The notes: generated by a model not told the origin, from the letters alone. A stretch of DNA of 64,000 nt from Dehalococcoidia bacterium (GCA_965249025.1 OZ252215.1:83209-147208); one strand, 5' to 3'; shown: positions 222 through 25,461, counted from the first letter of the stretch. A program made the numbers and translations.

Positions 222-1289
222 ATGGCTTCAAAAAAGGATCCATTTAGAGGATTTAGGTCTGTCAGGCGTGAAAGGCTGTCTAGGCGTCAGCAGGAGAGAC
301 GAAAGCAGCGAATAGCGTTTGGGTTCATTGTGGGGTTCATCTTACTAGTCCTGGGCGTTATAGCCTATGGTTACTTTACCACTTTCGTATTTCCCCCTCG
401 GCAGCTTATAGTGAGAGTAGATGATACCAGATATACCATGGGGGATATGATTAAGATCCTCAGGATGATGCAGCGTGGCTCTGAGTTCTTCGGCCAGAGG
501 ATGGATCTCTCCACCGTACCCTTCCAGATCCCGTTGTCCTTGGCTCAGCGAGAAATCATAGCGAATTCTGTGCCTCGTTTCAATATCAATGTAACGGATG
601 AAGAGATAGACCAGGAGATTAGGAGTCGCCTTCTTCCCAGCATTCCTGAAGGACAGGAGGTAGACCAGGAGCAGTTGGATCGGGAGTTTACGGAAAGGTA
701 TCGTCAATATCTCAACGCTATACAGTTTTCAGTGGCGGAGTATATGGACCTTGTCAAGGCTGATCTGGAGAGGGAAAAGGTTAGGGAGATAGTGGGACAG
801 GACGTGCCTAGAGTAGCGGAGCAGATTCACATAAACGCTATTGCAATGGGGCCTAGTGACGAATACGAGATTCTCAAGTCCAAGTTTGAGGATGGCACTC
901 CCTGGGAGCAGTTGGTGGTTGAGTTTAACCAAGACCCTACGCTAGCCGGCGAAAAAGGCGACTTGGGCTGGTTTCCTAGGGAAGTTCTTGAGACTTTGGA
1001 TGACATGCTATTTGGCCTAGAGATTGGCGAACTCAGCGAGCCAATCTTTGACCAGAATAGTAGGGTTGTGTACATGGTATCGGAGAAAGCAGATGCCAGG
1101 GAGTTGGATGAGGAAGACAGGGAGGCTCTGAAGACCAGGGCTATGCAGAAGTGGCTTGACGAGCAGTGGGACAAGTTCGATATCGAGACCAACTTCACAT
1201 CAGATGACTACGCCTGGGTGACTAAACAACTTGGCATATCCACCATACTTGCGGCACCACAGCAGCAGCCGAATCCGCTTGCCCAGTAG
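222..1289 (+). CDS. membrane-anchored peptidyl-prolyl cis-trans isomerase (SurA-N / parvulin PpiC type)
   Basis: Basic N-terminus followed by a TM helix (IAFGFIVGFILLVLGVIAYGYF). C-terminal parvulin-like motif KGDLGWFPREVL...LFGLEIGELSEP. ATG 222 follows GGGAG; the track ORF opens at GTG 207. Confidence 0.7.
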   Translation: MASKKDPFRGFRSVRRERLSRRQQERRKQRIAFGFIVGFILLVLGVIAYGYFTTFVFPPRQLIVRVDDTRYTMGDMIKILRMMQRGSEFFGQRMDLSTVPFQIPLSLAQREIIANSVPRFNINVTDEEIDQEIRSRLLPSIPEGQEVDQEQLDREFTERYRQYLNAIQFSVAEYMDLVKADLEREKVREIVGQDVPRVAEQIHINAIAMGPSDEYEILKSKFEDGTPWEQLVVEFNQDPTLAGEKGDLGWFPREVLETLDDMLFGLEIGELSEPIFDQNSRVVYMVSEKADARELDEEDREALKTRAMQKWLDEQWDKFDIETNFTSDDYAWVTKQLGISTILAAPQQQPNPLAQ

Positions 1290-3783: not shown

Positions 3784-4344
3784 TTGTTTCAGGAAGACCG
3801 TATAAGGGAATCTATTCTTGCCGTCATCCAGGCTATAGGAGATAACCCGGACCGTGAGGGTCTGAGAGAGACTCCTCGCCGAGTGGCCGAGATGTACCGT
3901 GATCTGTTTTCTGGACTAGGCCAGGACGCAAGGTCTGTGCTGGCTGCTGGGTTTGAGGAGGGGCACCAGGAGCTGGTTACCCTCAAGAACATACCATTCT
4001 ACTCTATGTGCGAGCATCACCTGCTCCCATTTTTTGGGAGCGCTCATATTGGATACATACCCAGAGGGAGGGTGGTAGGAGCGAGCACGTTGGCCCAGGT
4101 TGTTGACATAATAGCGCACCGACCGCAGATACAGGAGCGTCTAACCAATCAAGTGGCAGATGTCATTTTTGAGGCCATAAGCCCAGAGGGGGTGGCTGTG
4201 CTGGTGGAGGCGGAACACCTTTGCATGTCCATGAGAGGAGTGAAGAAGCCAGGCATGGTGCTTCTCACCTCTGCTACCAGGGGTGAGTTCAGCAGCAGAG
4301 CGGCTAGCCCTGCAGAATTCCTTAGGCTGTTGAAAGATAGTTGA
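3784..4344 (+). CDS. folE: GTP cyclohydrolase I
   Basis: Signature FYSMCEHHLLPFFG and REGLRETPRRVAEMY; 186 aa. Confidence 0.9.
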   Translation: MFQEDRIRESILAVIQAIGDNPDREGLRETPRRVAEMYRDLFSGLGQDARSVLAAGFEEGHQELVTLKNIPFYSMCEHHLLPFFGSAHIGYIPRGRVVGASTLAQVVDIIAHRPQIQERLTNQVADVIFEAISPEGVAVLVEAEHLCMSMRGVKKPGMVLLTSATRGEFSSRAASPAEFLRLLKDS

Positions 4345-6661: not shown

Positions 6662-6820
6662 TTGCACAAAAAGTCCTCGTTTTCGCCTATACTGTGACAG
6701 CAAACCTTGATTATCCCACCCGCTCCACTCTAGGATTGTATGTGTGGGACACCCCCAGACTCCCGCCAGAGAACCCAGGTTCTCTGGACTCTCCAGTAAG
6801 ATTCGCTTCCTGTGCAAAGC
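6662..6820. repeat. TIR-bounded ~159-nt interspersed element, copy 1 (inverted relative to copy 2 at 22131-22287)
   Basis: The reverse complement aligns along its whole length with 22131-22287. Shared core: GGAGAGTCCAGAGAACCTGG(G)TTCTCTGGC.GG.GTCTGGGGGTGT.CCC ... GTGGGTGGGATA.TC.AGGT. Ends are TTGCACA.../...TGTGCAA. Confidence 0.85.
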
Positions 6821-6993
6821 AAGATGTATTGACCCTTGCACAAATAGTTCGGATATCATCCTGAGCGAGTCGAAAGATGAGCGGCCACATATGCACCGTT
6901 CGTGGTGAGCCCTTCGCCAAGCTCAAAACAGGCTTGCCGAACTACGAACAATACAGGTCGATTTATTTTCTCAATAACCATAAGTGGGAGGCG

Positions 6994-9900
6994 TTATACG
7001 GGTTGTTCGTTTTTCCGGCCGCTGGCGGCTAATAGCGCATCCCGTCGCGCTCGCTGCACCTCTCGTGGCGGTGGTGGCGCAACAGTAGGTTTAGGTTTCA
7101 CTTTACGGAAGTTTGGTAGGTTGGCATCCCAGTTGTCCAAGACCTCGCGGGCCTTGGGACTGCCTGTTACCTCCCAATGGCGCTCGATGAGAGCATGTAG
7201 CGTCTCTATGTCTTCGGCTGCCTCCATGGACTCCAAATCAACCATTCCTGGGTTGTAGTTCAGGCCCAGTTGATCGTCGGGGTCGAGAACGAAGGCGATG
7301 CCTCCCGACATACCAGCGCCGAGGTTTCGCCCCGTCGGGCCTAAGACGACGACCACGCCTCCGGTCATGTATTCGCAGCAGTGGTCTCCTGCGCCTTCGA
7401 CCACCGCCCACGCGCCGCTGTTTCGGATGGCCAGACGCTCTCCCGCCTGGCCCGATGCGAAGAGGTAACCACCAGTAGTGCCGTACAGCACGGTGTTGCC
7501 CATGATGACGTTCTTGTGAGGGGGAAACGTAGCGCTTTGTGGCGGTCGTATGATTATCTCCCCGCCATTCATTCCCTTGCCGACGTAGTCATTGGCTTCC
7601 CCTTCAAGGTAAAGCTGCATTCCATTGATGCAGAAGGCGCCAAAGCTTTGTCCTGCGCTGCCTTTGAAACGAAGGCTAATGGAACCATCAGGCAGTCCTT
7701 TGTCGCCGTGTTCGTGGGCGATTGCACCAGCTATGCGTGCCCCGACGGTTCTGTGAACGGTTGATATCTTGCTCTCCATAGTCACAGGCTTTCCACCTTC
7801 GATGGCTGGTCTTACCTTGGGAAGAATGTCGTCATCCAGAGGCGGAGCGTCTCTATCGTTGCGGTCCTGGGCGCAGTACCTCGGACGAGTTGCCTCTGGG
7901 TCTAGCTGTACCAGCAGTTGGCTCAAATCCAGTGTCTTTGCCCTGGGATTAGCGATGTCTTTTCTCTGAGCTAAGAGTTGAGGCCTGCTAATTATGTCCT
8001 TTAGCCTTCGAGCTCCTAAGCTGGCCAGTATACCCCTTAGCTCTTCTGCTATGAAGAAGAAGTACCGTATGACCATCTCTGGTGTGCCGAAGAACTTCTT
8101 TCTGAGGTTTGGGTCCTGGGTAGCGACGCCCACTGGGCAGGTGTTGAGATGGCACTGGCGGGCCATCTGGCAGCCGATGGACACCAGCGCAGAGGTGCCG
8201 AAGGAGTACTCCTCTGCCCCTAACATGGCGGCCACTGCCACGTCCCGGGCCGTGCGTAGACCCCCGTCAGTACGCAGGGTGACCCTACCTCTCAAGTCGT
8301 TCATGACCAGGATCTGCTGGGTCTCGGCCAGACCTAGTTCCCAAGCGCTGCCGGCGTGTTTGATGGATATCAGAGGGGATGCTCCCGTGCCCCCCTCGTG
8401 GCCGCTGATGTGGATAACGTCGGCGTAGCCTTTGGCCACGCCAGCGGCGATAGTCCCTACGCCGGCCTCTGCAACCAGCTTTACGGCCACCTTGGCCCGG
8501 GGATTGACCATCTTTAGATCGTAGATAAGCTGCGCCAGGTCCTCTATGCTGTAGATATCGTGATGCGGAGGCGGAGAGATCAGAGGCACGCCTGGTTGGG
8601 TGTGTCTTATGGCGGCTATGTGTTCCACAACCTTATGGCCAGGCAGTTGTCCACCTTCACCTGGCTTGGATCCCTGGGCCATCTTTATTTCGATCTCGTC
8701 GGCCATAGCCAAATACTCCGGGGTTACGCCAAAGCGGCCGGAGGCTACTTGTTTTATCTTGCTATTGGAGGCCTCTCTGAAGCGACGGGAGTCCTCCCCA
8801 CCTTCTCCGGTGTTACTCTTCCCGCCTATGCGGTTCATGGCTATGCCCAAGACCTCGTGAGCCTCGGGGCTGAGTGCTCCGAGGGACATAGAAGCGGTAT
8901 TGAAGTGCTTGACGATTTCCGAGGCGGGTTCTACCTCATCCAACGGCACAGCCGGGCCCAGAGGCCTGAATTCCAGGAGGTCTCTAATGGCGACTGGCTG
9001 TTCTCCTGTTACCATGTCGCGGAACTGGTTATACAACTCCTGGGTTCCGTCTTCTGCTACGGTCTTGTGGAGCGCTCTTACCATCCGCGGGTTAAAGGCA
9101 TGATGCTCTCCTTGCTTGCGGAACCGATAGTAGCCGTAGTCGTCTAATTTGCCTTTGGGTGGAGGCTCGCCGAAGGCACGTCGGTGGCGCTCCAAGGTCT
9201 CTTGGGCGATCTCCTCTAGTCCGATGCCCTTGATTGAGGAGGGCGTACCATAAAAGGCTAGGTCTACGACCTCGTCACTCAGGCCAATAACCTCGAAGAT
9301 TTGGGCGCCGTGGTAGCTGGATACGGCAGAGATCCCCATCTTGGACATAATCTTGAGGATCTGTTTTTCCAGGGTACCCTTGTAGTTGTGGAGCGCATCC
9401 TCTAGGGGCATGTCCTCTCCGTGCTCTTCTTGTACAACGTCTGTTAGGCAGGCCAAGGCCAGGTAGGGGTTAATGGCGCTTGCGCCGTACCCCAAGAGGG
9501 TGACCATGTGATGCATGTCCCTGGCTTCTCCTGTCTCCGCGATGATGCTGGCCCTCATGCCCTTGCCCTCTCGGATCAGGTGATAATGCACTGCGCCTAC
9601 CGCTAGGAGCATTGGTATAGGGGCGTGCTCTTCATCAACCCCTTTGTCACTCAAGATAATGAGAGACTTCCTTTGGTCGACTGCCTGAGATGCCTCTTCG
9701 CATATTCTATTTAGGGCATCTCTTAAACCCGTTGACCCTTGCTTTACCCCTAAAAGCGTGGGAATGGTAGCGGAAGCGAGGATTGGGTCTGCCATATTTC
9801 TTAGAGCCGACATCTCGTGGTCCAGAAGCACGGGGCTTTGTAGGTAGATGAGGCGCGCGTGTTCCTCTGACTCTTCCAGAAGGCTATGGCGGGGGCCCAG

Positions 9901-16201: not shown

Positions 16202-17053
16202 CTAGTCTTTTTCTATGAGCACACCCACAGAATTGCCCCACTCCGTCCAGGAGCCGTCGTAGTTGCGCACCCTCTCGTAGCCCAGGAGATACTTTAGGAC
16301 AAACCAGCTATAGGAGGCCCGTACCCCCAGGCGGCAGTAGGGGATGACCTCCTTGTCGGGCATCACGCCCTTCTCTTCGTACATTCTTCGCAGTTCGTTG
16401 GCGGGCTTGAAAACGCCGCTTTCGTTAGCGCCGTCGTCCCAGGGGATGTGTATGGCGCCTGGAATGCGGCCCTTCCGCTCGATCTCCGGCTGATGGGTGC
16501 CTGGCGCCGAGGTGAGCTCGCCGCGATACTCCTCAAGTGCCCTGGTATCCAGAATGGCCACGTCCGAATTACCCAAGCGATTAGCTATATAGTCTTTGGT
16601 AGCCCTTAGGCTAGAGTCGGGGTTCTTGGCATGATAGGCCTTGGAAGAGGGGTTTGGGATATCTGTAGAGAGGGGGCGATTTTCGGCTACCCACTTCTTC
16701 CGGCCGCCGTTCATTATCCTCGCGTCTCGGTGGCCATAGTGCTTGAGGACCCAGAAGGCCCATGTGGCAGTGCGGTTGTTGCCGTCGCCGTACAAGACTA
16801 TGGTGGTGTCGTTGTCCACGCCTGAATTGTCCAAAAGGCGCTCAATTTGCTCCTTTGTGGGGATGTCGCGCATCACCGGATGCTCCAAGTCGGTGTGGAG
16901 TCCCCAACCTACGGCTCCGGGCACGTGGCCCTGTTTATATGCCGACTCTAGGTCTCCGTTGACCTCTACTATAACCAGGGAGGGGTCTGATAAGCGCTGT
17001 GCCACCCAGTCGGTCTCAACTAATAGCTCTGGATTAGCGTAGTTCTCTGGCAT
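16202..17053 (-). CDS. thiosulfate/3-mercaptopyruvate sulfurtransferase (tandem rhodanese domains)
   Basis: Two rhodanese domains with active-site loop CRLGVRAS; 283 aa. Confidence 0.85.
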   Translation of the reverse strand: MPENYANPELLVETDWVAQRLSDPSLVIVEVNGDLESAYKQGHVPGAVGWGLHTDLEHPVMRDIPTKEQIERLLDNSGVDNDTTIVLYGDGNNRTATWAFWVLKHYGHRDARIMNGGRKKWVAENRPLSTDIPNPSSKAYHAKNPDSSLRATKDYIANRLGNSDVAILDTRALEEYRGELTSAPGTHQPEIERKGRIPGAIHIPWDDGANESGVFKPANELRRMYEEKGVMPDKEVIPYCRLGVRASYSWFVLKYLLGYERVRNYDGSWTEWGNSVGVLIEKD

Positions 17054-17116
17054 GTCTAGTCCTCTAAAACAGGTTATGGCGATTTTATATCAGTGCAATA
17101 GATGAGGGCAAGTTTG

Positions 17117-18406
17117 TCATAAACCTTCTCGGTTCTCCGACATATCCGCCTCGAGCGTTGCTTTCTGGATCTCTTCAGGAGGCTTCACTTTACGGAACAC
17201 CATGTAGAGAGAGATGTCATAAACAATCTTGAGAACTCCAGAGAATACAAAGGGGGCGCTACTGGAGATGGCGTTCCATAAGGCAGTTCCAACAGAGGGC
17301 CCGATGGTCTGGTTGATGCTTCGTACCCCCAGGCGTAAGCTCACCATAGTTACGCGCTCTTCGGGGAGGACAATGGCTAACGTATAAGAGTCCCTGGTAG
17401 GCACATCCATCTGGTTTAAGAGAGATCGAAGTTGCCAGAATATGACTGCCATCCACGCTACGGGAGCGAAGGCTACCGCTATCAACAAAACGCTAGTGGG
17501 AATGTGGGTGAAGACCATTGTCTTTAGAAGGCCTATTCTATTGGCTATCTTGGCGGACAACCACAGTGAGATTACAGCTAGAAGTTGGGCTGTGAAGAAG
17601 ATTAAGGCCAGTCCTCCTAGCTCTATTCCAAACTTAGTAAAGAACCAATATACCACAAGGCCCTGTACGATGAGGCCACTGGCAAACTGGTCAACGCTAA
17701 AGAGGGCGATTAGAGGGAGGATGATTCGCCTAGAGGGGAGCTTCAAAGGGTTTATCCATCGCCGCTCTTCAAAACGACCATCCATAGCGGGTGATAGGGA
17801 CCTATATAGAAGAGAAAGAACAACCATAAGAGCGACAAAGAATAGGAACATGGTTTTAAAGGAGAAGGCTGGGCTTGTGTGAAATACGTCCTGAATTACC
17901 GTTGGAAGCCCTGCGGCCAGGGATCCCAAGGCGACGCCAATGGTAGAGACCATTCGATATATGGCGAAGAGGTCGGTCCGTTTTTGAGGTGGAGCCGTAT
18001 CTGGCAGGCCAGCCTGTTCCAGAGGTTGGATTGGTCCTCCTAGTGAACCGGCGCCGCCGCCACTTAGACCGCCAACGAAGGATATGAGCATTAACGGTAT
18101 CACATCGTCTACAAAGACAAGGGCTGTTCCTGAGATAGCTAGGAGGAGAGTGAATATGGTGAGTAGCTGTCTTCGTCCTACTCTTTCCCCGATGAATCCG
18201 GCCAGGAAGGTAAAGAAAGCAGAACCGGCTGCCCCCGCGCTAAGAAAGAAGCCAATTTGTACGAGGGTAAAGCCGAGATAGTCAAGGTAGATCGGCAGCA
18301 GTAAGGTTAGAGAACCCAGACCTAGGGTTAGCACTCCTCTGGAAAGAATGACGATTTTAGCGTCTCTGCTTATCCAACCAAGGGATGAAACTAAGGGAAA
18401 GTTCAC
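17117..18406 (-). CDS. MFS transporter
   Basis: About 12 predicted hydrophobic segments and the loop motif GERVGRRQ between TM2 and TM3; 429 aa. Confidence 0.8.
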   Translation of the reverse strand: MNFPLVSSLGWISRDAKIVILSRGVLTLGLGSLTLLLPIYLDYLGFTLVQIGFFLSAGAAGSAFFTFLAGFIGERVGRRQLLTIFTLLLAISGTALVFVDDVIPLMLISFVGGLSGGGAGSLGGPIQPLEQAGLPDTAPPQKRTDLFAIYRMVSTIGVALGSLAAGLPTVIQDVFHTSPAFSFKTMFLFFVALMVVLSLLYRSLSPAMDGRFEERRWINPLKLPSRRIILPLIALFSVDQFASGLIVQGLVVYWFFTKFGIELGGLALIFFTAQLLAVISLWLSAKIANRIGLLKTMVFTHIPTSVLLIAVAFAPVAWMAVIFWQLRSLLNQMDVPTRDSYTLAIVLPEERVTMVSLRLGVRSINQTIGPSVGTALWNAISSSAPFVFSGVLKIVYDISLYMVFRKVKPPEEIQKATLEADMSENREGL

Positions 18407-18575: not shown

Positions 18576-19541
18576 TTACCACCACAATTTGCCGTCTACC
18601 TCTTCCTTGAGGTCTCCAAAATCTTTGGTCCAAAGACCGGTGCTAAGGTATTTCCAGCCACCGTCCGCTAAGAGGCAGACGATGTTTCCGTTTTTCATTC
18701 GCGTTGCCAGTCTTCTGGCGCAGGCTATCACAGACCCTGAGGAGATGCCAGCAAAGAGACCCTCCTGTTCCATAAGCTCCCTGGTGAAGAAGAAGGCCTC
18801 TCTGCTCTCTATCAGCATCCTAGAATCCAGGACGGATAGGTTCAAAATAGGAGGTATGAACCCCTCTTCCAAGCTCCTTAGGCCCTGAATGGAGTCGTCT
18901 GGGTTGGGGGCAACGGCCACAATCTTGACACTGGGATTATGCTCCTTCAACCGCCGTCCCACCCCCATAAGGGTGCCTCCTGTGCCAAGTCCTGCGACAA
19001 AGACATCCACCTCTGGCAAGTCTCGGATAATCTCTTCTGCCGTTGTCTCGTAGTGGGCCCTGGGATTGGCCTCGTTGCCATACTGGTAGGGCATGAAGTA
19101 TGAGTCGTCCTGGGACGCCATCTCTTGAGCTACAAGGATAGAGCCGTTGGTCCCTCTCGATCCATCTGTAAAATGGATCTCTGCACCGTAGGCTTTGAGG
19201 AGTTGCACTCGCTCCTGGCTTACGTTATCTGGCATAACTACCTTGACCTTATATGCCTTTCGGCGTCCTATCATGGCAAGGGAGATACCGGTGTTGCCGC
19301 TGGTGGGCTCTAAGATAGTCTTGTCTGGCGTGAGAAGCCCTTCTGCTTCGGCCTGTTCAATCATGTACTTGGCTATTCTGTCTTTAACGCTTCCGGTGGG
19401 ATTTGCCCCTTCCAACTTTGCATATATGTTTACCTTTGGATTGGTGCTAGTTCTTTCCAGCTTTACCAAAGGTGTGTTGCCGATGGAGTCCAAGATACTT
19501 TCGTATCTCATATTATTAGGGCTTTTTACGCTGACCACCAT
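18576..19541 (-). CDS. cysM: PLP-dependent cysteine synthase, CysM type (resembles the mycobacterial CysO-dependent O-phosphoserine sulfhydrylase)
   Basis: GSVKDRIA PLP-lysine, EPTSGNTGISLA, YQYGNEANPRAHY, and a C-terminal ADGGWKYLSTG...GKLWW tail, as I recall for M. tuberculosis CysM. A strong AAGGAGG lies 6 nt before ATG 19541. Confidence 0.8.
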   Translation of the reverse strand: MVVSVKSPNNMRYESILDSIGNTPLVKLERTSTNPKVNIYAKLEGANPTGSVKDRIAKYMIEQAEAEGLLTPDKTILEPTSGNTGISLAMIGRRKAYKVKVVMPDNVSQERVQLLKAYGAEIHFTDGSRGTNGSILVAQEMASQDDSYFMPYQYGNEANPRAHYETTAEEIIRDLPEVDVFVAGLGTGGTLMGVGRRLKEHNPSVKIVAVAPNPDDSIQGLRSLEEGFIPPILNLSVLDSRMLIESREAFFFTRELMEQEGLFAGISSGSVIACARRLATRMKNGNIVCLLADGGWKYLSTGLWTKDFGDLKEEVDGKLWW

Positions 19542-19581
19542 AATCCGCCTCCTTGTATGTGAACTTTTCCTCTAAAAGGAG

Positions 19582-20130
19582 TTAGCCTCCTGATTTCAAG
19601 GAAAGGTTATTGCAGCGTTCGCAGGTCTCCTGGGGAATGAGTCCCCATTTCATGAGGTATCCGAATACAAAGCATCCAGCGCAGAATCCTACGAAGGACT
19701 CCAGCGCGGCGAAGATAGCCAGGATCGCGAGTACCCCTTCCGCCGCCACTTGTAAGCCGAAAGGATAGATAAAGATCAGCGCAGTAGTGGAAAAGACAAG
19801 GCCTACAAACTGGGCAAATCGCTTGGGAGGGCCAGCGACGAGTTTGTTTGGATTGCCCAAAAGTGGAACCAGACCCCGGGTAGCCAGCAGCCCCAAGGGG
19901 CTGAGGGTAGGCCCTGTGAGCACGCGCGCCAGGAACCCGTAGGCCAGGAAGAACAACAGCCAGCGGATGTCGAATACGATGATGGTCAGAGCTAATATGA
20001 CCACCATACCTGCTACCATCCTGGCGGCTATCTCGTTGGCTGGATGTGGAAAGCTGAAAACCTCTGAGAGAAAGCTTGGCTTGCTAATAGCTCCTTGGTT
20101 ACTTATTGTTGAGTGGTGCAATTCCTTCAA
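19582..20130 (-). CDS. DUF4395-family membrane protein
   Basis: LFFLAYGFLARVLTGPTLSPLGLLA...PPKRFAQFVGLVFS...FVGFCAGCFVFGYL matches the DUF4395 pattern. The start is uncertain (TTG 20130 or TTG 20121) because of a 9-nt tandem AAGGAATTG duplication at the start. Confidence 0.7.
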   Translation of the reverse strand: MKELHHSTISNQGAISKPSFLSEVFSFPHPANEIAARMVAGMVVILALTIIVFDIRWLLFFLAYGFLARVLTGPTLSPLGLLATRGLVPLLGNPNKLVAGPPKRFAQFVGLVFSTTALIFIYPFGLQVAAEGVLAILAIFAALESFVGFCAGCFVFGYLMKWGLIPQETCERCNNLSLKSGG

Positions 20131-20162
20131 TTCCTTTCTACTTATTCTGATGGTTTCCGGGC

Positions 20163-20199
20163 ATAAAAAGAGCCCTCGTTAGATTTCAACGAGGGCTCT
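20163..20199 (-). terminator. intrinsic terminator inside the 5' leader of DUF4395-cysM (attenuator stem 3:4)
   Basis: Minus strand reads AGAGCCCTCGTT-gaaatct-AACGAGGGCTCT followed by TTTTTAT. This is a 12-bp perfect stem only about 35 nt upstream of the DUF4395 start codon. Confidence 0.7.
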
Positions 20200-20229
20200 A
20201 GACGTCTGCTGTCTATCTTAGCTACGGCA

Positions 20230-20271
20230 CTAGGCGATAGCCCCTCCTATGTGGGGCATACAAGCGCACAT
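20230..20271 (-). CDS. candidate 13-codon leader peptide MCACMPHIGGAIA (Cys codons at positions 2 and 4)
   Basis: ATG TGC GCT TGT ATG CCC CAC ATA GGA GGG GCT ATC GCC TAG overlaps alternative-pairing segments 1 (GCCCC) and 2 (GAGGGGCT). No clear SD precedes it. Confidence 0.35.
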   Translation of the reverse strand: MCACMPHIGGAIA

Positions 20272-20304
20272 TGCTGCGAAGTTGATTTTTATCATTGTAT
20301 TGTA

Positions 20305-20333
20305 AGTATACACTATAGACATTTAAGTGTCAC
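20305..20333 (-). promoter_or_regulatory. candidate sigma70-type promoter for the Cys leader (GTGACA-N17-TATACT)
   Basis: On the minus strand the -35 GTGACA is at 20333-20328 and the -10 TATACT at 20310-20305, with a 17-nt spacer in an AT-rich context about 35 nt upstream of the leader ATG. Confidence 0.35.
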
Positions 20334-20374
20334 TATATCAGTTTGATGATGGGAATCTTATTAAGATTCTAGCG

Positions 20375-20472
20375 TGTCATTCTGAGGAGCGTGGCGACGA
20401 AGAATCCTTGGTACGGTCGCAAGAAAGGCAGACCAAGGATTCTTCCCCAGACAAGTCGGGCTCAGAATGACA
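20375..20472. repeat. palindromic MITE/REP-like element (TGTCATTCTGAG ... CTCAGAATGACA family)
   Basis: Terminal inverted repeats plus an internal inverted GAAGAATCCTTGG/CCAAGGATTCTTC pair. Related copies lie at 25361-25461 and 37907-38034, with a half-copy at 37846-37884. Confidence 0.85.
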
Positions 20473-20620
20473 GGAACCAGAGGATGTCAACTGTAGACAG
20501 CTGACTTCGTCTCGCCGTAGGGCGGACTCCGTCCCCGAGCCGTCGCCAGAGTGGCTTTGGCACGTCGGTGACCGAAGGCGGAGCTACTCGTTCTTCTACT
20601 GGGATAGTTGCCTAAGAATA

Positions 20621-21445
20621 TTATCCGGCTGCTGTCACGGGAGCGCCACAGAAGGCCTCGTAGTCTATTAACTCGGTGACGGTGGGATTGTCGCCACAGA
20701 GGGGGCAGTCCTTGTTGCGCCGCAGCTTGACGGCGCGGAACTCCATGGATAGGGCGTCTATAAGGAGAAGCCGTCCAGAAAGGGACTCGCCGACGTTCAG
20801 GATCAGCTTCATGGTTTCAATGGCCTGTATGGAACCCACTAGGCCTGGCAAGGCTCCCAGGACCCCGGCCTCTGCGCATGTCGGCACCGATCCCGGGGGT
20901 GGGGGGGTTGGGAAGAGGCATCGATAGCAGCCCTGGCCTGGAATGTACACGCTGGCCATGCCGTCGAAGAGCAGAATACTGCCGTCCACCAGAGGCTTGC
21001 CCGCTAGGTAGCAGGCGTCGTTGACCAGGTATCTGGTGGCGAAGTTGTCGGCCCCATTGATCACTATGTCGTAGTTGGGGATGATTTCCATGGCGTTTTC
21101 AGAGGTAATGGGCTCCTCGTGGCCTACCACCTTGACGTCCGGGTTATATCTAGTCAGGGTATCGATGGCGGACTGAATCTTAGGACGGCCAATGTCGTCG
21201 TTTTGGTGCAGTATCTGCCTTTGAAGGTTGGTGATGTCCACGGTATCGAAGTCGACGATACCAATGGTTCCTACGCCGGCAAGGGTTAGGTAGAGGGCTA
21301 CTGGCGAGCCGAGGCCGCCGGCGCCGATTATCAACACTCTGGTTCCCATTAGCTTGCGCTGGCCCTTGCTGCCAACCTGGGGCATTATAATATGCCTGCT
21401 ATATCTTTTGACCTGTTCTGCCGTTAGCGATAGGGTCTGAGTCAT
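20621..21445 (-). CDS. moeB: ThiF/MoeB/HesA-family adenylyltransferase (E1-like)
   Basis: RYSRHIIMPQVGSKGQRKL...VLIIGAGGLGSP nucleotide-binding motif and two CxxC pairs (CYRC, CPLC). No fused rhodanese domain. ATG 21445 follows AGGGAG; the track start is GTG 21451. Confidence 0.85.
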   Translation of the reverse strand: MTQTLSLTAEQVKRYSRHIIMPQVGSKGQRKLMGTRVLIIGAGGLGSPVALYLTLAGVGTIGIVDFDTVDITNLQRQILHQNDDIGRPKIQSAIDTLTRYNPDVKVVGHEEPITSENAMEIIPNYDIVINGADNFATRYLVNDACYLAGKPLVDGSILLFDGMASVYIPGQGCYRCLFPTPPPPGSVPTCAEAGVLGALPGLVGSIQAIETMKLILNVGESLSGRLLLIDALSMEFRAVKLRRNKDCPLCGDNPTVTELIDYEAFCGAPVTAAG

Positions 21446-21594
21446 GAGCACTCCCTGTTTTTACTGTTTATTCATTTGTTTAGGTGCAATAAGTGCAGAT
21501 GTGGTGCATTATATCAAAAAACCGTTGAGAGAAGGCGGCTTGAAACGGTGTTGGCCGAGTTTCAAAGAATGGTTCACGGAAGGCGAGGATATGG

Positions 21595-25360: not shown

Positions 25361-25461
25361 TGTCATTCTGAACGTAGTGAAGAATCCTTGAATTGTTTTT
25401 ATGTCTCACGTGCCAAGGATTCTTCAGTCGTCCGAATCTTTCGGACTCCTTCAGAATGACA
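25361..25461. repeat. palindromic MITE/REP-like element (TGTCATTCTGA family)
   Basis: TGTCATTCTGAA ... TTCAGAATGACA termini with an internal GAAGAATCCTTG / CAAGGATTCTTC pair. Confidence 0.85.

Follow-up and report, generated by a model that had tools for sequence, protein, structure and literature searches.

The classical attenuators of E. coli and Salmonella (trp, his, leu, thr, ilv and pheA) have four RNA segments that permit the pairings 1:2, 2:3 and 3:4, and a terminator that lies directly before the first structural gene. The same organisation is predicted on the minus strand of a stretch of 64,000 nucleotides from a Dehalococcoidia bacterium (GCA_965249025.1 OZ252215.1:83209-147208, the whole of which is here called the window), where between positions 20163 and 20333 a short open reading frame (ORF) with two cysteine codons and an intrinsic terminator precede the genes of a DUF4395 membrane protein and a cysteine synthase. 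Unlike the classical attenuators this one is predicted to sense cysteine, its two regulatory codons lie one codon apart, its host belongs to the Chloroflexota, it matches no leader in Rfam, and its ORF, which has no Shine-Dalgarno (SD) sequence and starts about 9 nucleotides (nt) after the -10 box, is probably leaderless. It is considered likely, from the sequence and from modelled folds, that the element is a ribosome-mediated leader-peptide transcription attenuator that responds to cysteine, and the cysteine-synthesis operon behind it would most likely be turned on only when cysteine is short.

Cysteine has long been without a described leader-peptide attenuator, the cases that have been tested being translational only (in mycobacteria) and the terminator type having only been predicted (for cysS in Rhodobacterales). 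In Mycobacterium smegmatis leaderless poly-Cys short ORFs (Ms5788A and others) have been shown experimentally to control cysteine and sulfur operons, and until then attenuation by an upstream ORF (uORF) had not been described for cysteine (Canestrari et al. 2020, 10.1101/834739). The mycobacterial mechanism is translational, with the Cys tract pairing with the SD of the next gene and no terminator involved (10.1101/834739). What the window shares with these ORFs is a Cys short ORF, probably leaderless, as the first cistron of a cysteine/sulfur operon, presumably with stalling on the Cys codons as the signal. However, the mycobacterial ORFs carry 2-8 consecutive Cys codons at their C-terminal end, whereas the window has C-x-C in the middle of its ORF (codons 10-12 of 21), and where the mycobacteria use SD pairing without a terminator the window has a terminator and a predicted antiterminator, the terminator lying before the SD. 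Consecutive Cys codons were not found in the window ORF, and in the predicted folds its Cys codons pair with the stop-proximal region and not with the SD.

Two further groups of Cys leaders are known from prediction. The uORFC-8-2 motif, found upstream of cysS in Rhodobacterales, has a predicted uORF with two conserved Cys codons in a stem, followed by a terminator stem and U-run, and has been proposed to sense Cys-tRNA (Brewer et al. 2021, PMC8632094). It resembles the window element in having two Cys codons and an intrinsic terminator, with both being predictions, but it belongs to another phylum and another gene, has its Cys codons in tandem at positions 14-15 and shows no sequence relation. 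In Actinobacteria short ORFs with runs of Cys codons have been predicted upstream of cys and cbs operons (Seliverstov et al. 2005, PMC1262725), for which no terminators were found and Rho-dependent control was suggested (PMC1262725), whereas in the present element nothing is better conserved than its strong intrinsic terminator. In the literature searched, neither elements of this kind in Chloroflexota nor any link of them to DUF4395 were found. The window element appears to be non-homologous to the known Cys leaders; what is new in it is its host, the set of genes under control, the spacing of the Cys codons as C-x-C and the joining of a terminator to a leaderless ORF, but the principle is known.

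Transcription of the leader is predicted to start from a sigma-70-like promoter on the minus strand (GTGACA-17-TATACT, 20305..20333), which matches 10 of the 12 consensus positions and lies upstream of the leader as a preliminary description of this DNA had placed it. The leader ORF begins 9 nt after the -10 box (20230..20295, minus strand) and has 21 codons, encoding MIKINFAAMCACMPHIGGAIA, followed by TAG. Cys accounts for 2 of these 21 codons, and TGC-GCT-TGT (Cys10-Ala11-Cys12, 20260..20268, minus strand) are the putative regulatory codons. The ORF described earlier, ATG TGC GCT TGT...TAG at 20271-20230, is correct in sequence and position, but its extent of 13 codons is not, as it forms the in-frame 3' part of the 21-codon ORF (ATG 20295, TAG 20230). 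The upstream start is preferred because the internal ATG at 20271 is ACA in L157, the closest relative found (DUF4395 about 90% identical), in which the upstream start, ATG ATA AA..., is retained. A 30-codon version starting at 20322 was also rejected, since it begins before the point where transcription is predicted to start and L157 lacks its ATG.

The missing SD had been listed as a weakness of the proposal, but it is explained if, as in mycobacteria, the leader start is leaderless, which is probable given a start codon 9 nt after the -10 box here and 4-9 nt after it in relatives; the 5' untranslated region would then be of 0-3 nt. Among 24 curated leaders, 13 have a promoter with at least 9 of 12 matches placed 4-9 nt before the start codon, and this recurring spacing makes a leaderless or nearly leaderless mRNA most likely. 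The layout of -35 box, 17 nt and -10 box right before the leader start is seen also in L157, L158, L159, L077, L003, L086, L025 and L164-L166. The gap to the start is 6 nt in L158 (TTGACA-17-TACAAT, start GTG) and, with ATG as start, in L159 (TTGACC-17-TATACT), L077 (TTGACA-17-TATCCT), L086 (TTGACA-17-TATAGT) and L025 (TTGACA-17-TACGAT), and it is 8 nt in L003 (TTGACA-17-TATACT, start ATG).

The terminator (segments 3 and 4, 20165..20199, minus strand) has a 13-bp stem, a 5-nt loop and a T5 run. Its stem-loop, AGAGCCCTCGTTG-AAATC-TAACGAGGGCTCT at 20199-20169, has 13 pairs and a predicted energy of -20.3 kcal/mol, and no hairpin with T-run in the window is stronger. A perfect-stem terminator is present before DUF4395 as first described, with a stem of 13 pairs and not of 12 bp. 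From the end of the T-run to the start of DUF4395 there are 33 nt (start TTG 20130) or 42 nt (TTG 20121), and a scan of the window sequence found no promoter-like site in this interval, in agreement with the earlier estimate of about 35 nt without an intervening promoter. Of the terminator-like sites in the window, which number only 13, this one has the longest perfect stem and no other has a Cys-containing short ORF ahead of it, and no second Cys leader turned up in a scan of all 64 kb. A simple terminator scan gives 1 site in 1.5 kb against 1.3 expected, a count that is uninformative by itself.

The segments GCCCC, GGAGGGGCT and AGCCCTC were all found at the places claimed for them. The first (20253..20257, minus strand) is the core of segment 1, and in minimum free energy (MFE) folds it and the Cys codons make up the 5' side of the 1:2 hairpin. 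The second (20239..20247, minus strand) is segment 2, which encodes Gly17-Gly18-Ala19 and has segment 1 and the terminator 5' arm as its alternative partners. Segment 2 is the best duplex partner of that arm, at -10.9 kcal/mol, the duplex being GGGGCU:AGCCCU or, in an alternative register, GAGGG:CCCUC; the stretch GGAGGGGCU begins 15 nt after the UGU codon.

A sample of 166 loci encoding relatives of DUF4395, from genome and metagenome collections, was used for comparison. Five closer relatives (protein identity 72-89%, and 60% for L089) retain a homologous leader, and the predicted ORF is kept as an ORF in L157 (MIKANFSTTCTCMPYIGGAIA), L158 (VIILKRCVCTTSTGGNIA), L159 (MRLLTMCTCTCCLGGPIA), L077 (MSILTGCACTNSIGGTSA) and L089 (MFVLPRMSCACPHCFGGSAPA), with no promoter-like site being called in the last; the leader of L003 (MNQLHTCMCTKRKLRGHICL) is also recognisably homologous. 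The common layout is a promoter, a start 6-9 nt after the -10 box, C-x-C, GGAGGG, a stop codon and a CCCTC...GAGGG terminator. Three blocks are invariant, or in the case of GGAGGG nearly so, throughout the alignment, namely the second Cys codon (TGT), GGAGGG itself and the CCCTC/GAGGG core of the terminator, with TGT present in all eight aligned leaders of clade A and the first TGY in seven of them. The N-terminal codons drift, including non-synonymous changes between the window and L157, and the Cys codons and the 3' half are fixed. The terminator is the consensus structure of the clade-A alignment, with compensatory changes in 4 of its 10 pairs (RNAalifold).

It could be proposed that the short ORF is a functional small Cys/Gly peptide, for instance one that binds metal or sulfur or acts at the membrane, with read-through into DUF4395 incidental or constitutive. 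The conserved C-terminal ...IGGxIA of clade A would suit such a peptide, as would a unit with its own promoter and terminator. However, the peptides of different clades differ completely except for Cys and Gly, the amino-acid bias is specific to Cys, which is the product of the operon, and, as no promoter-like site follows the terminator, DUF4395 and the cysteine synthase gene would be left without a transcript. Moreover, the Gly codons of segment 2 in clade A are only GGA or GGG, as pairing with CCCUC needs, and not any GGN, and an A-to-G change in L157 keeps the pairing with U of CCCUC as G-U; together these point to a constraint on segment 2 at the level of RNA rather than peptide. A functional peptide is considered very unlikely.

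Leaders of other Chloroflexota clades are dissimilar in sequence, yet they too have Cys codons, as CxC or CC(C), and a terminator. Examples are an Anaerolineae-type leader (MFGKNRLALEACFCSTCIGAP), an AT-rich marine-type leader (MSINLMKMFCCCPNNNFGVA) and the further leaders MMLYLTCVCTGAP, MHHCSCCCMRP and MQFVPCVCTSVP; in L164-L166, where the gene order is Rrf2-ThiF-PALP-DUF4395, a Cys leader and terminator stand before ThiF (MMAMENICTCMCM, MIAMNYTCICMCPK and MMARQTVCTCMSSH). BLASTN against 76 distant loci found no conservation of the leader at the nucleotide level, so that homology can be recognised solely among closer relatives or in the architecture. The architecture was also counted without reference to curated leaders. 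A hairpin with T-run occurs on the sense strand in 37 of 122 non-redundant regions upstream of DUF4395, 26 of these 37 have an ATG or GTG short ORF whose end falls 15-45 nt ahead of the hairpin, and CxC or CC is present in 21 of these 26 short ORFs, with Gly reaching 10 and Leu 7 in the same test applied to all 20 amino acids. The antisense control gave 27 terminators, 8 short ORFs and CxC or CC in 4 of the 8. In a looser count, of any short ORF with CxC or CC within 300 nt, the sense strand scored 36/119, the antisense strand 21/119 and shuffles 7.5%. The Cys-leader signal is concentrated in Chloroflexota.

In clades A-C the best partner of the terminator arm is a G-rich stretch that begins 12-18 nt beyond the last Cys codon and runs to within 3-14 nt of the stop. 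A ribosome halted on Cys would thus leave this stretch just uncovered, and one at the stop codon would cover it. In each of the 24 curated leaders the stable hairpin is followed directly by at least 5 T in 9 nt, and the stop codon lies 23-37 nt before the terminator 5' arm in these leaders. Both observations bear on what is the main residual alternative, namely that the Cys ORF does sense cysteine but that its output is not intrinsic termination; translation of DUF4395 (through occlusion of its SD), Rho or mRNA stability would then be affected, and the hairpin would be mainly structural or stabilising. The Cys short ORF Ms5788A works at the translation level (10.1101/834739), the proposed antiterminator helix is short, and L160-L166 have, just before DUF4395, a further Cys short ORF whose hairpin lacks a clear T-run, all of which would agree with such an output. 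The T-runs in 24 of 24 leaders do not, the constant spacing from stop to terminator suits control of termination, and in the window the Cys codons are predicted to pair with the stop-proximal region and not with the SD of DUF4395. An output other than termination is thus judged unlikely for this element, and attenuation of transcription is preferred.

The folding of the leader is consistent with attenuation. In free RNA the Cys codons and GCCCC are predicted to pair with GGGGC and a stop-proximal GC-rich stretch that extends past the stop codon, and this 1:2 hairpin leaves the terminator able to form. The predicted helix energies in the window are -16.5 kcal/mol for 1:2, -10.9 for 2:3 and -20.3 for 3:4. 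In the trp attenuator, in which the decision is likewise kinetic, the three helices are of similar energies, about -11, -12 and -20 kcal/mol, and the window values are of the same order. The effect of the ribosome was modelled by folding the nascent transcript as far as the terminator loop under the constraint that no nucleotide behind the leading edge of the ribosome may pair, the value taken being the energy gained by sequestering the terminator 5' arm. With the ribosome on the last Cys codon this gain is -5.8 kcal/mol for the window, and 12 others of the 15 leaders folded give -6.1 to -11.5 kcal/mol, so that 13 of the 15 behave alike, whereas with the ribosome at the stop codon it is 0.0 in the window and 0 to -4.6 kcal/mol in relatives. 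The pairing of segment 2 with the 5' arm is also present in the MFE fold of the nascent transcript with the ribosome on the Cys codons. The folding that had been put forward as a check therefore agrees with the proposal, and in the model the antiterminator is usable only when the ribosome stalls at the Cys codons. As the 2:3 duplexes of these G-rich leaders have only modest z-scores against shuffles (mean -1.15), a swap of cognate and non-cognate segments was added; in 11 of 12 leaders of clades A and C the leader's own stop-proximal segment was the best partner of its terminator arm when compared with those of leaders from other clades.

The leader as a whole is strongly structured, the 181 nt folding at -53.6 kcal/mol (z = -3.95), below all 200 dinucleotide shuffles. 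Strong structure might also suggest that the RNA binds a metabolite, as a riboswitch does, or a regulatory protein, the terminator being its expression platform and the ORF incidental, and a Rrf2/CymR-like regulator gene is nearby, though that family binds DNA. When 19500-21000 was searched with cmscan against the Rfam covariance models for leaders, riboswitches and T-boxes, even at E <= 10 there were only chance-level matches far below gathering scores. An incidental ORF is also at odds with clades that share only in-frame Cys codons, the G-run and the terminator, with the tie of the start codon to the promoter at 4-9 nt in 13 of 24 leaders, and with the distribution of TGY, of which there are 62 in the ORF frame against 25 and 3 in the others (the frame having been picked by the analyst). 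A binding RNA of this kind is regarded as extremely improbable.

The mechanism proposed for the attenuator is as follows. Transcription would begin at or just before the ATG at 20295, and a ribosome would translate the 21-codon leader while RNA polymerase proceeds. When Cys-tRNA is plentiful the ribosome would reach the TAG (20232-20230) and cover GGAGGGGCU, which after release of the ribosome would be captured in the 1:2 hairpin by the region of the Cys codons and GCCCC; the terminator 5' arm would be free, the 13-bp hairpin would form and transcription would stop at the T-run, short of DUF4395. Under a shortage of Cys-tRNA the ribosome would stall with UGC or UGU in its A site, so that segment 1 is covered and GGAGGGGCU exposed. 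The exposed GGAGGGGCU would pair with AGCCCUC of the terminator 5' arm once this is made, blocking the terminator, and RNA polymerase would then read into DUF4395, the cysteine synthase gene and possibly the genes of a major facilitator superfamily (MFS) transporter and a rhodanese. The comparative and folding evidence agrees with the cysteine-sensing attenuator of trp/his-type geometry first put forward, with the start of the ORF corrected; the response to cysteine itself is inferred.

A number of points weigh against this mechanism. The leader has only two Cys codons and these are not adjacent, and the 9 nt from the -10 box to the ATG are long for a strictly leaderless start. At equilibrium the terminator is always favoured (-36.4 kcal/mol with it and about -18 without), which requires a switch that is kinetic, as it is in trp. 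With 6 pairs in the window and 5 in most relatives the 2:3 helix is short, and it closes a multiloop; an earlier measure, the mean probability of the 5' arm pairing upstream, showed no clear contrast between stall and stop in several relatives and was superseded by the energy gain from sequestration of the arm. Across the eight clade-A leaders RNAalifold finds no consensus 1:2 or 2:3 helix, the 1:2 helix itself being clear in the window (-16.5 kcal/mol), L077 and L089 and weak or different in L158, L159 and L086. Nor is there true 2:3 covariation in clade A, because GGAGGG and CCCTC are both invariant. The orthologous leaders that had been proposed as a check do, on the other hand, carry a Cys-containing uORF and, at its 3' end, a G-rich segment complementary to their own 5' arm, and the proposal is not refuted by them. 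A few high-GC clades that have their Cys codons beside the stop codon misfit the simple geometry, and the Cys-ORF signal is absent at most of the distant DUF4395 loci (Actinomycetota, Leptospira and many SAR202).

The genes behind the attenuator lie on the minus strand. The first is DUF4395 (19582..20130, start TTG 20130 or TTG 20121; Pfam PF14340, E = 8.8e-32) and the second encodes a cysteine synthase of the CysK/CysM subfamily (18576..19541, Pfam PALP), whose product scores 361.3 bits against a cutoff of 344.15 for NCBIfam TIGR01136 cysKM, which bears out the earlier statement that a cysteine synthase is among the regulated genes. After a gap of 170 nt come an MFS transporter gene (17117-18406) and then the gene of a tandem-rhodanese (double-rhodanese) sulfurtransferase (16202-17053), and the two (16202..18406) may be distal members of the operon. 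Upstream of the leader, on the same strand, are genes for a Rrf2/CymR-like regulator and a ThiF/MoeB-type adenylyltransferase. Co-occurrence of neighbours, examined by tblastn, was uninformative outside the close clade. In close relatives the cysteine cluster is flanked by transposase genes (IS110, rve/IS3-like and IS1595; L158:1119-2081 and 6674-8528, L159:1-332) and its order varies, with DUF4395 before PALP in the window and L158 and after PALP in L160-L165. The transposases and the differing gene order suggest that the cluster has been locally rearranged repeatedly, the leader moving together with DUF4395.

Further elements were noticed upstream of the leader. A near-perfect 17-bp palindrome, GAATCTTAATAAGATTC, lies at 20353-20369, its centre some 63 nt ahead of where transcription is predicted to start; the window has a single copy, and L157 retains it in part. 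A DNA-binding regulator, for example the neighbouring Rrf2/CymR-like protein, may use it as an operator, which would add control at the level of the promoter. Between ThiF and the leader promoter (20375-20472) there is a nested palindromic element of about 100 nt, TGTCATTCTGAG...GAAGAATCCTTGGT...ACCAAGGATTCTTC...CTCAGAATGACA, with a diverged second copy 5 kb off (about 25362-25460) and a related sequence at the same place in L157, which looks like a repeat of the repetitive extragenic palindrome (REP) or miniature inverted-repeat transposable element (MITE) kind. The spacer between Rrf2 and ThiF holds a 9-codon ORF, MHHICTYCT and a stop, with two Cys codons (21480-21509, minus strand), about 30 nt before the start of ThiF; it overlaps a TATAAT-like box and is followed by no terminator, and it may be due to chance or be what is left of the Cys leader seen before ThiF in L164-L166.

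Cys short ORFs were also seen elsewhere in the loci compared. In L160-L166 (ThiF-PALP-DUF4395) the second short ORF overlaps the stop of PALP about 120 nt before the start of DUF4395 (locus position 4001); it ends in ...C-x-C-I or ...C-x-C-T-M/V-G-A before its stop codon, and a GGGGG...CCCCC hairpin without a clear T-run follows. In L162 the sequence CCUCUG in the Cys codons of this ORF is complementary to CAGAGG at the SD of DUF4395, and the second ORF may attenuate translation in the mycobacterial manner, in addition to the transcriptional attenuator ahead of it. In Neomarinimicrobiota loci (L024, L023 and L156) leaders with 4-6 consecutive Cys codons and terminators precede other genes; in L024, MMKMNVKQINNTCCCCCTPKGNPSRA (1111-1243, plus strand) precedes a PALP cysteine-synthase-like gene, and on the minus strand the tandem leaders ...NCCCCCCNLMSLLLV and MKNKNKINCCCCIIWDLIPD precede a NIR_SIR sulfite-reductase-like gene. 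In marine SAR202-type Chloroflexota (L074:4646-4798, L098, L104, L103 and L133) a leader, MGSNLIKIEKKQHSYIYSCGCCCRNKVRPMDF, with a terminator lies just downstream of DUF4395 and precedes the gene of a secreted protein of about 460 aa without Pfam match, and in L148 (4320-4432, also of the marine SAR202 type) MGNSFFSRYCSCCS and a terminator precede an MFS transporter gene.

DUF4395, which has conserved CAGC and CxxC motifs, is the gene found most consistently directly behind Cys leaders in the loci compared. Its C-terminus in the window (19582-19700) has two Cys pairs, ...FVGFCAGCFVFGYLMKWGLIPQETCERCNN, both of which the distant homologue encoded in L152 shares (FCAGCF ... CEAC). The Cys pairs and the control by a Cys leader hint that DUF4395 is a thiol- or sulfur-handling membrane protein.

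To our knowledge almost no gene regulation has been characterised in Chloroflexota, and this locus, together with about two dozen relatives, would provide a classical terminator/antiterminator version of attenuation on cysteine-synthesis genes in that phylum. The finding overturns nothing that is established. It does offer a rule for the annotation of metagenomes, in which the succession of promoter, leaderless ATG, CxC, G-run and stop codon, with a terminator 23-37 nt further on, would mark genes regulated by cysteine, and it gives a functional lead for DUF4395, a family of unknown function that would become tied to cysteine and sulfur metabolism. It is quite possible, although as yet a tentative proposal, that Cys-codon leaders with terminators form a widespread and undescribed 'cysteine ribulon' in uncultured Chloroflexota and Neomarinimicrobiota, which would seem to have evolved more than once and in some cases to be combined with a further Cys short ORF, acting on translation, within the operon. 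DUF4395, as its most constant target, would then belong to the core machinery that takes up or relays sulfur for cysteine synthesis.

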